DNA from: Parvibaculum sp.
GTDB taxonomy: Bacteria > Pseudomonadota > Alphaproteobacteria > Parvibaculales > Parvibaculaceae
Reading direction: 5' to 3'
Length of the DNA: 64,000 nt
Assembly (NCBI RefSeq): GCF_019635935.1
Contig: NZ_JAHBYN010000001.1
Span: forward strand, 2,507,532 to 2,571,531
Below the pieces are notes generated by a model. The model saw only the letters and a program-made list of their open reading frames with translations, was not told the DNA's origin and did not search any database. The position numbers were made by a program, and so were the translations under genes. Shown in pieces: positions 30,809 to 36,075 of the stretch. Every line of letters starts with the position of its first letter. Within the stretch, counting starts at the first letter, position 1.

Positions 30809-31005
30809 GGGGGCGGGGCACTCCGTGTCGTGAAAGGGCCATGGAAGGTATCGCCAGTCTCCCATGATGATCCTCTGAATTGAAGCCCCGCCACGGCCCG
30901 GCGGTTTCGTCGGTGGCTTCATTCGAGCGTATTTCGGGAGATAGGCTGAAAACGGGGATCGAGCGCATCGCTGACAATTGGCCGCAACCTGCTAACCTTC
31001 CGCCC

Positions 31006-33573
31006 ATGACAGCCCCGCTCCCCGCGCCCCGAACACCGCAAGCGCCCGCCGCGCTGCCGCCGGCCTTCGCCCGCTGGTTCGCCGCCCGCGGCTGGCGCCC
31101 GCGCGCGCATCAACTGGCGCTGCTCGATCTCGCCTGCACCGGAAATTCCGCGCTGCTGATCGCCCCCACCGGCGCCGGCAAGACGCTGGCGGGCTTCCTC
31201 CCCTCGCTGGTCGATCTCGCAGAAAATCCGCCATCGAAGCCCGCGCTGCACACGCTCTACATCTCGCCGCTGAAGGCGCTCGCCGTCGACGTAAAGCGCA
31301 ACCTCGAAATCCCGATTGCCGAAATGGGTCTCGACATCGCCATCGAAACCCGCACCGGCGACACGCCGCAGAACCGCCGCCTGCGCCAGCGCCACACGCC
31401 GCCCTCAATCCTGATGACGACGCCGGAGCAACTGGCGCTGCTGCTTTCCTACAGCGATGCGCCCAAATTCTTCGCCGCGCTCTCCTGCATCGTCCTCGAC
31501 GAGCTGCACGCATTGGCCAATTCGAAACGCGGCGATCTCTTGTCGCTCGGCCTCGCACGTCTCTCGCGTCTTGCGCCCGCCGCGCGCCGCGTCGGCCTGT
31601 CCGCTACCGTCGCCGAGCCCGATGCGCTCAGGCGTTATCTGATGCCGCAGTCGCCAAGTGATGAAACAGGCGGCGAAAGCCTCGCCGAAATCGTCGTCGC
31701 GCCGCCCGGTGCCGCGCCCGAAATCAACATTGTCGCCACGGGCCTGCCCGACGAAGAGGGCGGCGAGGCGCGCATCCCCTGGTCGGGTCATTCGGCGCGT
31801 CACGCGCTCCCCGCCGTCTACGAGGCGATCCGGCAAAACCGCATCGTGCTGGTCTTCGTCAACACGCGCTCTCAGGCCGAATTCGTCTTTCAGGAACTCT
31901 GGCGCCTCAACGACGACGCGCTCCCGATCGCGCTGCATCACGGCTCGCTCGCCGCCGAAGCCCGCCGCAAGGTCGAGGCCGCCATGTCGGCGGGCACGCT
32001 TCGCGCCGTCGTCTGCACCTCGACCCTCGATCTCGGCATCGACTGGGGCGAGGTCGATCTCGTCGTCAACATGGGCGCCCCGAAAGGCGCGAGCCGCCTG
32101 CTGCAGCGCATCGGCCGCGCCAATCACCGCCTCGACGAACCCTCGCGCGCGCTGCTGGTGCCGGCCAACCGTTTCGAGGTGCTCGAATGCGAGGCGGCCC
32201 GCGCCGCCGCCCTTGAAGGTGCGCAGGACGGCATGGTCGCGCGGCAAGGCGCGCTCGACGTGCTGGCGCAGCACATTCTCGGTTGTGCCTGTTCGCAGCC
32301 ATTCGACCCCGACGATCTCTATACGGAGGTTCGCTCCGCCGCGCCCTACCGCGCGCTGACGCGCGACGATTTCGGCAAACTGGTCGATTTCGTCGCCACC
32401 GGCGGCTATGCCCTGAAGACCTATGACCGCTTCGCGCGGCTCCGCCCCAACGCGAAGCTCGAAGGCGACATGCGCCTGCGCGCGTCCTCGCCTTCCGTCG
32501 TCCAGCAATACCGCATGAATGTCGGCACCATCGTCGAGGCGCCGATGCTGAAGGTGCGGATGATAAGGCGCGGCGGGCGCCGCCCCGTCGGAGGCATGGG
32601 CGGGCGTTACCTCGGCGAGATCGAGGAATATTTCATCGACCAGCTCTCCCCCGGCGACACTTTCCTCTTCGCCGGCCACATCCTGCGTTTCGAAGGTCTC
32701 GCCGAAACCGAGGCGCTCGTCACGAAGTCGCCATCCGGCGAACCGATGATCCCGTCCTACTACGGCGGCAAGTTTCCGCTCTCGACCTATCTGGCCGCCC
32801 GTGTCCGCCGCATGCTGGCGCACAAACCCGAATGGCGGCATCTGCCGCCGCAGGTCCGCGAATGGCTCGAAATGCAGAGCTGGCGCTCGGTGCTGCCCGG
32901 CGAAGACAATCTGCTGGTCGAGTGCTTCCCGCGCGGCGACAAGTACTATCTCGTCTGCTACCCCTTCGAGGGTCGCCTCGCGCATCAGACGCTCGGCATG
33001 CTGCTGACCCGCCGCCTCGACCGCGCCGGCGCGCGGCCGATGGGCTTCGTCGCCTCTGAATATTCGCTGGCGATCTGGTGCCTGCGCGATCCGGGCCTGA
33101 TGCATGAGCGTCACGAGCTGCCGCTCGGCGAGTTGTTCGCCGAAGACATGCTGGGCGACGATCTCGACGCATGGCTCGCCGAATCGAGCCTCTTGAAACG
33201 CACCTTCCGCGATTGCGCCATTATTGCCGGCCTGATCGAGCGCCGCTATCCGGGCCATGAGAAGTCGGGCCGTCAGGTCACCTTCTCCTCCGACCTCATA
33301 TATAATGTGCTGCGCGAGCACGAGCCCGACCACATCCTGCTGCGCGCCACCTTCAACGACGCCGCCACCGGCCTGCTCGACATCGCCCGCGTCGCTGCCA
33401 TGCTGAAACGCATCCGTGGCCGCATCGTCCTGAAACGCCTCGACCGCGTCTCCCCGCTCGCCGTCCCGGTCCTCCTCGACATCGGCAAGGTCCAGGTCGA
33501 CGGCGAGGCCAGCGAAGCGCTACTCTCCGAAGCGGCCGACAAGCTGATCGAGGAAGCGACGCGGCTGGTGTGA
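31006..33573 (+). CDS. lhr: Ligase-associated DNA damage response DEXH helicase (Lhr family)
   Basis: APTGAGKT, YISPLKAL, LDELH, GLSAT, LDLGID, QRIGRANH. Confidence 0.92.
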   Translation: MTAPLPAPRTPQAPAALPPAFARWFAARGWRPRAHQLALLDLACTGNSALLIAPTGAGKTLAGFLPSLVDLAENPPSKPALHTLYISPLKALAVDVKRNLEIPIAEMGLDIAIETRTGDTPQNRRLRQRHTPPSILMTTPEQLALLLSYSDAPKFFAALSCIVLDELHALANSKRGDLLSLGLARLSRLAPAARRVGLSATVAEPDALRRYLMPQSPSDETGGESLAEIVVAPPGAAPEINIVATGLPDEEGGEARIPWSGHSARHALPAVYEAIRQNRIVLVFVNTRSQAEFVFQELWRLNDDALPIALHHGSLAAEARRKVEAAMSAGTLRAVVCTSTLDLGIDWGEVDLVVNMGAPKGASRLLQRIGRANHRLDEPSRALLVPANRFEVLECEAARAAALEGAQDGMVARQGALDVLAQHILGCACSQPFDPDDLYTEVRSAAPYRALTRDDFGKLVDFVATGGYALKTYDRFARLRPNAKLEGDMRLRASSPSVVQQYRMNVGTIVEAPMLKVRMIRRGGRRPVGGMGGRYLGEIEEYFIDQLSPGDTFLFAGHILRFEGLAETEALVTKSPSGEPMIPSYYGGKFPLSTYLAARVRRMLAHKPEWRHLPPQVREWLEMQSWRSVLPGEDNLLVECFPRGDKYYLVCYPFEGRLAHQTLGMLLTRRLDRAGARPMGFVASEYSLAIWCLRDPGLMHERHELPLGELFAEDMLGDDLDAWLAESSLLKRTFRDCAIIAGLIERRYPGHEKSGRQVTFSSDLIYNVLREHEPDHILLRATFNDAATGLLDIARVAAMLKRIRGRIVLKRLDRVSPLAVPVLLDIGKVQVDGEASEALLSEAADKLIEEATRLV

Positions 33574-33599
33574 GCGGCGACCTTTCGAAAAACAAAAGT

Positions 33600-33625
33600 G
33601 TCACCCCGGCGCAAGCCGGGCTCCA
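33600..33625. repeat. REP-like element
   Basis: GTCACCCCGGCGCAAGCCGGGCTCCA has a CCCGGC/GCCGGG stem with GTCA…TCCA flanks, typical of alphaproteobacterial REPs. Confidence 0.6.
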
Positions 33626-33652
33626 TGGGCATCTCGAACTGACACCTGACAA

Positions 33653-34366
33653 ATGTACGAATTGAAACAGGACCTCCATCTCGAAATGCACCCCGCGCTC
33701 ACCGTTTGCGGACAGGCTTTCGACCTGACGCCCGAAGGCGCGGCCTTCCTCGCCGCCGAGCGTCTGCTCGTCGCCGCCGACCTCCATCTCGAAAAAGGTT
33801 CGTCCTATGCCGCGCGGGGCATCGCGCTCCCGCCCTACGACACCCGCGCGACGCTCGTCCGCCTCGAAAACCTGATCGCCCGTTTCCGCCCGCGCGTCGT
33901 CGTTGCGCTCGGCGACAGTTTCCACGACGCCCGCGCCGACAGCCGCATGGCGCCGAAAGACGCCGCGCATCTTGCCAGGCTCACGCGGAGCTGCGACTGG
34001 ATCTGGATTTCCGGCAATCACGATCCGGCGCCGCCGCCGCAATTCGGCGGCGAAATCATGGAACAATTTCGTCTCGGCCCGCTGACCTTCCGTCACGAGC
34101 CGCAGGCGGCACCCGCCACCGGCGAGATAGCCGGCCATCTTCATCCGTGTGCGGCGGTTCGCGTGCGCGGCCGCCGCCTGCGCCGCCGCTGCTACACGTC
34201 GGACGGCACGCGCATGGTTCTCCCCGCCTTCGGCGCCTATGCCGGCGGTCTCAACGTCCTCGACCGCGCCTTCGACGATCTGCTCCCCGGCCTCGATTTC
34301 CATGCCTGGATGATGGGCGGCCGCACCGTCGTCCCCGTCGCCGCCCGCCGCCTCGAAGCGGATTGA
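33653..34366 (+). CDS. pdeM: Ligase-associated metallophosphoesterase/endonuclease PdeM
   Basis: ADLHLEKG, LGDSFHD, GNHD, FRHEP, GHLHP, LPAFG. Start could be 33686. Confidence 0.92.
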   Translation: MYELKQDLHLEMHPALTVCGQAFDLTPEGAAFLAAERLLVAADLHLEKGSSYAARGIALPPYDTRATLVRLENLIARFRPRVVVALGDSFHDARADSRMAPKDAAHLARLTRSCDWIWISGNHDPAPPPQFGGEIMEQFRLGPLTFRHEPQAAPATGEIAGHLHPCAAVRVRGRRLRRRCYTSDGTRMVLPAFGAYAGGLNVLDRAFDDLLPGLDFHAWMMGGRTVVPVAARRLEAD

Positions 34367-34422
34367 TCCGTATAGGGATCGAATAGCGGAATTTGCCCCT
34401 GTTTCGAGGATAAACCCTCTCT

Positions 34423-34451
34423 CTGTCATCCATCTGTCAAAAAACTGTCAC
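34423..34451 (+). promoter_or_regulatory. Triple PHO box (PhoB-type direct repeats)
   Basis: CTGTCAT-CCAT-CTGTCAA-AAAA-CTGTCAC: three heptamers at exact 11-bp period (34423, 34434, 34445). Confidence 0.8.
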
Positions 34452-34504
34452 AAATGGCCTTCGCAGCGGGGATAAAAAAAGTAATCCCCTGGGTTATCCC
34501 CGTT

Positions 34505-35275
34505 CTAGCCGAACGTCGCCAGCACCGGAAAAGTCTCCAGCAGGAAGATCGCGATCCGCTCGAACGAACCGAGGATCATCAGCGTCCCGGTCGCCGCCAG
34601 CAGCAGCCCCGCCGCCATTTCGACCTTGCGCATGTGACGGCGGAAGCTCGACGCAAAAGACAAAAATCCGCGTACGGCAAATGCCGCCGCGATAAATGGA
34701 ATGCCGAGCCCCAGCGAATAGACGGTGAGCAGCGCCGCACCCGCCTGCAAACTTTCCTGCGCCGCCGCGATCGTCAGGATCGTCGCGAGGATCGGACCGA
34801 TGCAGGGCGTCCATCCGAAGGCGAAGGCAAGCCCGAGAACATAAGGGCTGAAAAACTGCATCGCCGGGCTGCGCGCGACATCGCCATTGCCCGCGATGCG
34901 AAAACGCATGTCGCGATCGAGCAGCGCAATGCGAAAGAGACCCATGTAATGCAGGCCGAAAATCACAATCACCGCCCCTGCAATTTGCGACAGTACGATC
35001 TTGTTCGACATGATGAACGGATTGATCGCCGAGGCGCTGGCGCCAAGCGCGACGAAGATCGTCGTGAAGCCGAGCACGAAACCGGCCGCGCCCAGCGCGA
35101 CGCGCTGTGTCAGCCCTTCGGATGCCAGCGGCTTTCCCTCCGCATCCTCGCGCGTCAACTCTTCGAGCGACGTGCCGGCGATGAAGCAGAGATAGGCCGG
35201 CACCAGCGGCAACACGCAAGGCGACAGAAAACTGATCAGCCCGCCGGCGGCGGCGGCGAAATATCCGATCTCCAT
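34505..35275 (-). CDS. ccdA: Cytochrome c biogenesis / thiol-disulfide transporter CcdA
   Basis: FLSPCVLPLVPAYL and FAFGWTPCIGPILA (two catalytic Cys). Confidence 0.93.
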   Translation of the reverse strand: MEIGYFAAAAGGLISFLSPCVLPLVPAYLCFIAGTSLEELTREDAEGKPLASEGLTQRVALGAAGFVLGFTTIFVALGASASAINPFIMSNKIVLSQIAGAVIVIFGLHYMGLFRIALLDRDMRFRIAGNGDVARSPAMQFFSPYVLGLAFAFGWTPCIGPILATILTIAAAQESLQAGAALLTVYSLGLGIPFIAAAFAVRGFLSFASSFRRHMRKVEMAAGLLLAATGTLMILGSFERIAIFLLETFPVLATFG

Positions 35276-36075
35276 TAGGGTCGCCTCATCACGGCCGAAG
35301 CCAGCCAGCCCGCAAATGCCGCACCGAGAACGGCGAGCAATCCGTATAGCAACGGGTCGCTATGCGCCATCCGATAGATGAAACGTTCGATGCCGCGCTT
35401 GTCGATATAGAGCGGCGACGAAATCGTGTCGATCACATCGCCATCCTGAAACAGATAGACCTTGGCGGTATAAAGGCCAACCGGCACATTGGCGGGAATG
35501 TCGACACGCGCGCGAAAAAGCGTCTGCCCGAGAAATGTCACGCCGCCCGGCACGCTGACATAGAGCCGGTCGCGCTGCCTGTTGCGGATCAGTGCCTTCC
35601 AGAAAGCGGTCTCCTGCTCCGGCAGCAGAATCTGCACCGTCCCGTCGATGGCGCGCGCCTCCGCAACGCCGGGATCGATGCTTTCGATGCCGATGCGCAG
35701 TGCTTTCAGAATATCCGGTGTGGTCGTCACTTCGAGCGGCCGCGTGCTGGCAACCGCGTAGTAGCCCGGCACGTCGGGATAGGTGACGGAATCGTGGTTG
35801 ACCCAGATGCCGGCCACGCGCTCCTTGCGTCTCACCATCGCCGGTGCGTTCGGCCCCTGCACCACGACGACGATGTCGCGGTTGAGCGCGCGTGTGCCGG
35901 GCGTGCGCGCCTCGACCGCGCCGAAGAGCAGGATCTGGGTACCCGTGAAGTTCGAGCGAATGGCGATCTGGTGTTCGGAAAGATCGGTCACCAGCTGGTC
36001 CGCGCGCAGGGGCGTCGCCGCCAGAACGGCGACGGCGAGCGCAAGCGCGAGGCGATATGTCGAAACGGCGTTCAT
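35275..36075 (-). CDS. Conserved alphaproteobacterial TIGR02186-type membrane protein
   Basis: IAIRSNFTG, VRRKERVAGIWVN, LFRARVDIPANVPVG; C-terminal TM; TAATG overlap with ccdA. Confidence 0.85.
   Translation of the reverse strand: MNAVSTYRLALALAVAVLAATPLRADQLVTDLSEHQIAIRSNFTGTQILLFGAVEARTPGTRALNRDIVVVVQGPNAPAMVRRKERVAGIWVNHDSVTYPDVPGYYAVASTRPLEVTTTPDILKALRIGIESIDPGVAEARAIDGTVQILLPEQETAFWKALIRNRQRDRLYVSVPGGVTFLGQTLFRARVDIPANVPVGLYTAKVYLFQDGDVIDTISSPLYIDKRGIERFIYRMAHSDPLLYGLLAVLGAAFAGWLASAVMRRP

Follow-up and report, generated by a model that had tools for sequence, protein, structure and literature searches.

What is an array that looks like a triple PHO box doing between two convergent genes, with nothing to regulate behind it? 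The site lies in a 138-bp spacer (34367-34504) between pdeM on the plus strand and ccdA on the minus strand, in a window of 64,000 nucleotides (64 kb) from Parvibaculum sp.; "the window" denotes this whole stretch, and its features are listed in Table 1. The first-pass annotation had described an orphan operator aimed antisense into ccdA, and had proposed a phosphate-starvation-induced antisense RNA, a PhoB roadblock or decoy, or the relic of a deleted Pho-regulon gene. Its geography was accurate: the array does lie between convergent genes, and 53 nt separate the last box from the ccdA stop codon. The lhr-type helicase gene and pdeM, members of the 'ligase-associated DNA damage response' set, lie side by side (30880-34366) and are preceded directly by genes for an SDR and a DUF6460 protein; neither a ligase nor an exonuclease gene was seen adjoining the pair.

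Table 1. Coordinates of the array, its associated boxes and the surrounding genes, numbered from the first letter of the window.
Feature	Position	Strand	Basis or remark
Lhr-type helicase gene, ligase-associated, upstream of pdeM	30880-33573		TIGR04121
pdeM, ligase-associated DNA damage response endonuclease	33653..34366	+	TIGR04123, 234 bits
Palindrome ATCCGTATAGGGAT over pdeM stop codon	34366..34379	.	Separate recurrent motif, also in some family copies
Whole repeat copy	34405..34502	+	Profile HMM of family core
Left inverted repeat CGAGGATAAACC, degenerate inverted box	34405..34416	.	83% complementary to GGGTTATCCCCG
Pyrimidine tract CCCTCTCT, upstream of array	34415..34422	+	Family consensus there (a)CCCCCCCT
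Segment inverted relative to L006, L008, L017 (and L010-L013)	34418..34490	.	Local alignment
Unit 1 CTGTCATCCAT	34423..34433	+	
Unit 2 CTGTCAAAAAA	34434..34444	+	
Unit 3 CTGTCACAAAT	34445..34455	+	
Inverted box CGGGGATAA	34467..34475	-	GGGGATA at lattice offset +16 from array
Box GTAATCCCC	34481..34489	+	AATCCCC core at +31, on 11-bp lattice
Box GTTATCCCCG, doubling as right inverted repeat	34493..34502	+	TATCCCC core at +43, on lattice
ccdA / DsbD_TM family gene	34505..35275	-	Last in TauE / TIGR02186 / DsbD_TM run

The array itself is real. The heptads CTGTCAT (34423-34429), CTGTCAA (34434-34440) and CTGTCAC (34445-34451) all lie on the plus strand with their starts exactly 11 bp apart, as had been noted, and the site reads CCCTCTCT, CTGTCATCCAT, CTGTCAAAAAA, CTGTCACAAAT and then GGCC. 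A search of the 64 kb for the triple pattern gives this one match, even when 2 mismatches are permitted; 100 dinucleotide-preserving shuffles produced it 0 times. For the two-unit pattern, the expectation in the window is only 0.07. CTGTCA is under-represented in the window (6 sites vs. 14.9 expected), and three of the six sites belong to the array. The description of the spacers as mostly A/T holds for those behind heptads 2 and 3 (AAAA and AAAT), less so for the first (CCAT).

The resemblance to a PhoB site holds too. By our count, units 2 and 3 (CTGTCAAAAAACTGTCAC) match 17 of the 18 positions of the textbook PhoB consensus, the A-rich spacer included. The E. coli definition of a PHO box asks for a pair of 11-nt direct repeat units whose core is CTGTCAT (PMC4415409); in Caulobacter, PhoB ChIP-seq gave the motif YGTCAYR with an A-rich 4-nt spacer (98 sites; bioRxiv 10.1101/741363). 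Units 2 and 3 likewise provide two 11-nt direct repeat units, each with a CTGTCAT-like 7-mer, around an A/T-rich 4-nt spacer, so that the match to the PhoB consensus reported by the first-pass annotation stands as a near-perfect PHO box. The same head-to-tail CTGTCAY units with an 11-nt period and an A-rich 4-nt spacer make up the PHO boxes of E. coli pstS and phoA and those of Caulobacter and Sinorhizobium, and arrays of more than two units are found at pstS and in the multi-unit PhoP operators of Streptomyces (PMC4415409; 10.1101/741363). From this likeness, PhoB or a very similar OmpR-family regulator would be the best candidate for binding the CTGTCA units. No pst or pho operon was detected in the collected loci when these were searched for PhoU, PstB and PhoB with approximate E. 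coli query sequences.

The site is not, as first thought, an orphan. Metagenome contigs that matched the locus stacked over 34423-34455 and nowhere else, their sequences to the left and right being unrelated, and contig depth in metagenome X3 was 285 at the array compared with 13 around it. Scanning the metagenome collection with the pattern CTGTCA-N5-CTGTCAAAAAACTGTCAC returned 50 loci, nearly all from three samples, one of which also contains the orthologue of the window locus (L071). After near-duplicates were removed, at least 48 copies with unrelated flanks remained, on Parvibaculum-type metagenome contigs. In X3 alone the consensus core is present on 42 contigs, with a summed depth of 867 (vs. 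8-13 for single-copy contigs), and in the low-coverage sample X2/X5, whose contigs are almost identical to the window, it has at least 5 distinct flanks.

Across the 48 copies, the family consensus is (a)CCCCCCt-CTGTCAYsGAA-CTGTCAAAAAA-CTGTCACAAA, and the number of CTGTCA units per copy ranges from 3 to 5. Conservation extends beyond the search pattern to GAA in spacer 1, AAA behind unit 3 and the C-rich tract upstream, and there is none outside this core of about 40 bp. The window holds one family copy, which a profile HMM of the core matches at 34414-34468 only (E 2e-14); a single copy in 64 kb is consistent with the density of about one exact copy per 70 kb, as calculated from the summed lengths of the TARA scaffolds with a match. 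We take the site to be one copy of an interspersed, intergenic mosaic repeat of the Parvibaculum lineage, and this forms part of a fuller explanation, developed below, that we find modestly probable as a whole. Searches against plasmids gave chance-level matches only, and in the literature we found no paper that deals with repeats in Parvibaculum or with repetitive elements that carry PhoB sites.

Does the array nevertheless drive transcription into ccdA? In this alternative, units 1-3 would replace the -35 element of a PhoB-activated promoter whose transcript, an antisense RNA or sRNA, would start near 34475 and run antisense into ccdA. The near-consensus PHO box formed by units 2 and 3 speaks for such a promoter, as does the absence of a coding gene behind it, a point on which the first-pass annotation was right. 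The sole plus-strand ORF there (34454-35278) is a spurious shadow that overlaps ccdA antisense, with a GC3 of 0.61 compared with 0.78-0.80 in real genes; it has no Pfam or domain match, and its ATG is missing in the relative L007. No phosphate-starvation gene and no Rfam RNA follows the array in the same orientation.

At PHO-box promoters, a -10 element lies about 10 bp downstream of the box that takes the place of the -35. Here, positions +11 to +16 after the array read CGCAGC, and there is no -10-like hexamer 9-12 nt past 34451. A scan of 34367-34504 found neither a sigma-70-like promoter nor an intrinsic terminator. Across the 48 copies, no -10 is conserved at a fixed distance and no position behind the array shows conservation, so that the proposed promoter finds no support in the window copy or in the family. 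Terminator-like sites on the same strand are present downstream of 12 of 47 copies and are mostly weak; in a few copies, hairpins formed by the boxes and followed by the A-rich array read as opposite-strand terminators, which is not general.

Nor does the spacer have the features of a small RNA gene, be it promoter, terminator or conserved structure or sequence. It is empty in Rfam at E values up to 10, as are 16 family loci, and the window as a whole matches a distant tRNA only. The alternative pairings that had been pointed out are both real: CGGGGATAA (34467-34475) and TTATCCCCG (34494-34502) are 100% complementary, and CGAGGATAAACC (34405-34416) and GGGTTATCCCCG (34491-34502) are 83% complementary, with the correction that GGATAAACCC starts at 34408 rather than 34409. 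Folding energies at the spacer are nonetheless unremarkable (z between -1.1 and -2.0). On these results, and with the ccdA target itself not conserved (see below), we consider a dedicated antisense promoter distinctly unlikely.

One orthologous pair, L061/L107, has a layout of its own that does resemble an RNA gene of about 60 nt and counts on the side of the promoter model. A strong intrinsic terminator, GAGAGACGAATTCGTCTCTCTTTT, lies at +45 to +85 and is conserved between two lineages, and a TACACT-like hexamer occurs 12 nt behind the array. This copy looks like a candidate short RNA gene of about 60 nt.

By its CcdA protein the window belongs to Parvibaculum: the relatives in which this protein is 78-98% identical are all Parvibaculum or alphaproteobacterial MAGs. 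The pdeM-ccdA spacer could be followed through relatives, and the nearest of them (L001-L005, L007 and L071) share the layout of the window. In L006, L008, L010-L013 and L017, by contrast, the triple array occupies the opposite strand of the same spacer and points to pdeM; the flipped array adjoins the ccdA stop in L006, L008 and L017 and in the more distant L010-L013. In L014 the stop codons of pdeM and ccdA are 4 nt apart, with no spacer and no element. The direction into ccdA is therefore not conserved, because the cassette is inverted in some relatives and absent in another, and the view of the array as aimed at ccdA loses its footing. The same comparison removes the relic model, since none of the relatives compared has a gene inside the spacer.

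Inversion of the cassette is evident from alignment: the segment listed in Table 1 scores 64-76 against L006, L008 and L017 as the reverse complement and 26-31 in the forward direction. The reverse-complement alignment spans the array, the 16-nt spacer behind it and the CGGGGATAA box. Inverted copies of the GGGGATAAACCC / GGGTTTATCCCC motif border the flipped segment; they are 83% complementary in the window and form a perfect inverted repeat of 13 bp in L002 and L007. In these two and in L071, the left inverted repeat reads CGGGGATAAACCC.

Could the cassette be a phase-variable switch that flips within populations and redirects its activity to ccdA or pdeM? Both orientations do occur among close relatives, some with perfect flanking repeats; in a neighbour-joining tree built from the flanking genes they are not clearly sorted, and either one flip or several would fit. 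However, the cassette carries no promoter, a recombinase gene was not found nearby, and four metagenome assemblies (contigs only) contained no strand-switch joints. Orientation is also kept in 5/5 other orthologous pairs of family members. We regard such a switch as highly improbable. In near-identical strains (L005 and one X2 contig), position 34445 has changed from C to A, which destroys the third CTGTCA and suggests relaxed constraint on the window copy of the repeat.

The CTGTCA units are only part of the element. In order, the window copy consists of the left inverted repeat, the pyrimidine tract, three CTGTCAY units, a spacer, TTATCCCC-type boxes and the right inverted repeat, and throughout the family a second motif, TT(A/G)TCCCC, accompanies the arrays, often extended to an A-run plus CTTATCCCCGG(TT). 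An A7 run precedes box GTAATCCCC in the window, as it does in many family copies. Within the 64 kb window the motif is confined to the pdeM-ccdA spacer, and in 347 kb 100 of its 108 sites fall between -100 and +200 of an array, mainly downstream and mainly on the same strand. Of 50 arrays, 23 are followed by nine-mers like ACTTATCCC, which have 0-2 counts in 603 kb of background, and up to 28 by second-motif 9-mers (0-3 times in the same background). The boxes are predominantly direct (67, vs. 23 inverted). About a dozen copies are 'bare' arrays that lack second boxes, most of them near gene starts.

Both box types obey one register. The offsets of the second boxes from the array cluster at 9, 20, 31, 43, 53, 65, 76... 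nt, with a period-11 Rayleigh z of 36 for the boxes (10 when the inverted ones are taken alone). The window copy falls on this lattice, which spans about 100 bp and includes both box orientations. So strict an 11-bp lattice common to two box types suggests the cooperative assembly of two proteins, for which no precedent is known among interspersed repeats.

We then considered where the copies lie, using crude GC3-based gene calls on stop-to-stop ORFs. By these calls, the flanking genes are convergent at 15 copies, co-directional at 9 and 10 (in the two orientations) and divergent at 3, so that the family is enriched at gene 3' ends and in convergent spacers and depleted in divergent promoter regions. 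The strand of the array shows no preference relative to the genes (9 vs. 10 co-directional) and no GC-skew polarity (19/35). This combination of 3'-end enrichment, promoter avoidance and indifference to strand and skew argues for an element that works at the level of DNA rather than RNA. Its neighbours are housekeeping genes such as ychF, lepB, era, leuS, holA, radC and dnaB. One is phosphate-related: an array precedes a PiT transporter gene by about 100 nt, a position kept in a second lineage. Among individual placements (L093, L097, L100 and L106 765-793), one array starts 8 nt behind a tRNA-Thr gene, and at era the array stops 8-12 nt short of the start codon, with 5 units in L093 and 3 in L100.

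When orthologous copies of two lineages are paired, the core and several boxes prove intact in both, with diverged spacers between them. Unit number nevertheless varies at orthologous loci (3 vs. 5 at era, 3 vs. 4 in L072/L082). An upstream poly-C tract (7-10 C) with an inverted GACAG pair characterises 15 of 17 copies of the TARA lineage but only 3 of 28 of the Ga0209024 lineage (L058-L107), and unit 1 is mostly CTGTCAC in the former and mostly CTGTCAT in the latter, even at orthologous loci. Such lineage-specific features at shared positions indicate concerted evolution of the family, and they agree with such evolution of a repeat no less well than with selection for binding.

The element may then be purely selfish or neutral, comparable to a MITE, REP or minisatellite, with its PHO likeness coincidental or a reflection of a transposase or recombinase site. 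Dispersal, the 3'-end preference, the inverted terminal boxes of the cassette, variable unit number at orthologues, lineage-specific homogenisation and the empty site in L014 would all be expected of it. Against this stand the core, perfectly conserved at orthologous sites despite the divergence of the flanking spacers, and the match to 17 of 18 positions of the textbook PhoB consensus, A-rich spacer included. The second-type boxes, moreover, are mostly direct and do not form hairpins. As weak evidence, tblastn with E. coli RAYT found no match in 347 kb plus the window, and no RAYT-like or other transposase gene turned up in the 347 kb. We rate a purely selfish origin as unlikely.

Several known systems share some of these properties. 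E. coli BIME, REP and RIP elements and Rhizobium RIMEs are short extragenic mosaics, present in tens to hundreds of copies per genome and enriched at 3' ends and between convergent genes; they combine few motifs in variable number and orientation, and some carry a site for a host protein (IHF in RIP). The Parvibaculum family has the same dispersed intergenic habit and 3'-end preference, and is itself a mosaic of a few recurrent motifs whose number and orientation vary. It differs in its architecture: where BIME and REP sequences are hairpin-forming palindromes, the Parvibaculum repeat consists of direct repeats on an 11-bp lattice. No GTAG-plus-palindrome signature of REP was found in it, and the site that it embeds is an array of response-regulator type.

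Compared with genuine PHO boxes, the repeat has no -10 partner, no downstream Pho gene and no conserved orientation, and its core comes with a second type of box. The sites of the PHO regulon proper also vary in sequence, whereas about 40 bp of the repeat recur tens of times with identical spacers. Another parallel is found in E. coli, where Fitzgerald et al. (2023; PMC10294691) documented transcriptionally inert PhoB sites; these are likewise high-quality motifs that lie outside promoters and give no regulatory output. Those sites, however, are mostly intragenic, poorly conserved and single, whereas the Parvibaculum sites are intergenic, repeated and conserved at orthologous positions.

The bound protein could also be something other than PhoB. 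Viral contigs (L109, L112, L123, L148, L153 and L159) carry CTGTCAC units in tandem at an 11-bp period, 4-8 per array and with GC-rich spacers, and the presence of these arrays in unrelated phage contigs implies that other proteins can use such arrays, so that the assignment to PhoB is still an inference. An iteron-binding, centromeric or nucleoid-organising protein, for example, might form a filament on CTGTCA and TTATCCCC boxes at about 30-50 chromosomal sites. This would accommodate the lattice of about 100 bp with boxes in both orientations, and positions that are conserved irrespective of gene orientation. Modules of iterons and DnaA boxes at plasmid and phage origins, as well as the chromosomal DnaA-box clusters datA and DARS, combine phased direct repeats with adjacent TTATCC-type 9-mers spaced 2-3 bp apart and with A-rich tracts. 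The TTATCCCCG 9-mers of the repeat, at 2-3 bp spacing, may resemble such DnaA-box arrays, sharing 7 of 9 positions with TTATCCACA.

The likeness ends with the phasing. The 9-mer in the Parvibaculum repeat is TTATCCCCG and not TTATCCACA, the element occurs in tens of copies per genome with no initiator or rep gene adjacent, and a replication function is without support. In addition, an A-rich 4-bp spacer with exact CTGTCA heptads is a hallmark of PhoB, and the spacers of the phage arrays are GC-rich. An array for a non-PhoB protein is thus also improbable in our estimate. Separately, about 50 contigs of one phage group (L108, L111, L113...) share CTGTCACAAATCTGTCAACTTGCTGTCAC, for which GenBank phages and E. 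coli genomes gave no match.

Taken together, we favour, with modest confidence, a repeat copy that serves as a protein landing pad, probably for PhoB. Each copy is an 11-bp lattice that begins with three CTGTCAY-NNAA units (up to five elsewhere) and usually continues with (A-run)CTTATCCCCGG-type boxes in either orientation. Between pdeM and ccdA, inverted copies of the second box bound the cassette, and recombination between them would have flipped it relative to close relatives. We infer that the element acts as double-stranded DNA. Its CTGTCA units would form a high-affinity pad for phosphorylated PhoB, or a PhoB-like OmpR-family regulator, bound head to tail on one face of the helix, and the TTATCCCC boxes, in phase with these units, would bring in another protein alongside the array. 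The copy between pdeM and ccdA, which has no partner promoter, would be a decoy or architectural site rather than a dedicated antisense promoter, and is most likely transcriptionally inert for ccdA. Judged from sequence and position, most family copies may likewise be inert landing pads with a decoy or architectural role, because they are promoterless and lie mainly at gene ends. Of the earlier suggestions, a PhoB decoy or roadblock is compatible with these results as a property of the whole family, though not as one of the pdeM-ccdA locus in particular.

In a bolder version of the landing-pad model, to which we give only a slim chance, the copies would be about 30-50 conserved, chromosome-wide nucleoprotein sites at which a PhoB triple box nucleates a phased TTATCC-type array for the second protein; DnaA is presumably one candidate for that protein, given the spacing of its 9-mers by 2-3 bp. 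If true, phosphate status would act through these sites on something global, for instance titration of the replication initiator or chromosome architecture, and the repeat would be an interspersed element of a new kind, loaded with a regulator and distinct both from gene-by-gene regulation and from junk.

A perfect-looking regulator site with no gene can, then, be a copy from a repeat family rather than a dedicated switch, and regulon predictions for Parvibaculum that rely on PHO-box scans would be inflated by tens of repeat copies. If PhoB does bind the copies, they would be a clear example from nature of a short repeat that has multiplied a transcription-factor site throughout a genome, with possible effects on titration of the regulator, on the phosphate-response threshold and perhaps on read-through at gene ends.

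Two further motifs recur around the family. The longer copies (L064, L068, L085, L090 and L099) have in common a GC-rich motif, GCG..CGA(A/T)TCG, about 60-110 nt after the array; it contains a GANTC (CcrM methylation) site, and the order A-run, TTATCCCCGGTT box, motif is repeated. The 14-bp palindrome ATYCGTRTACGRAT, which in the window covers 34366-34379, is also found inside five family copies (L060, L064, L085, L090 and L094) at +20 to +32 after the array and, in related genomes (L080, L092 and L102), adjoining stop codons of other genes; it is possibly an operator or another module of the repeat.
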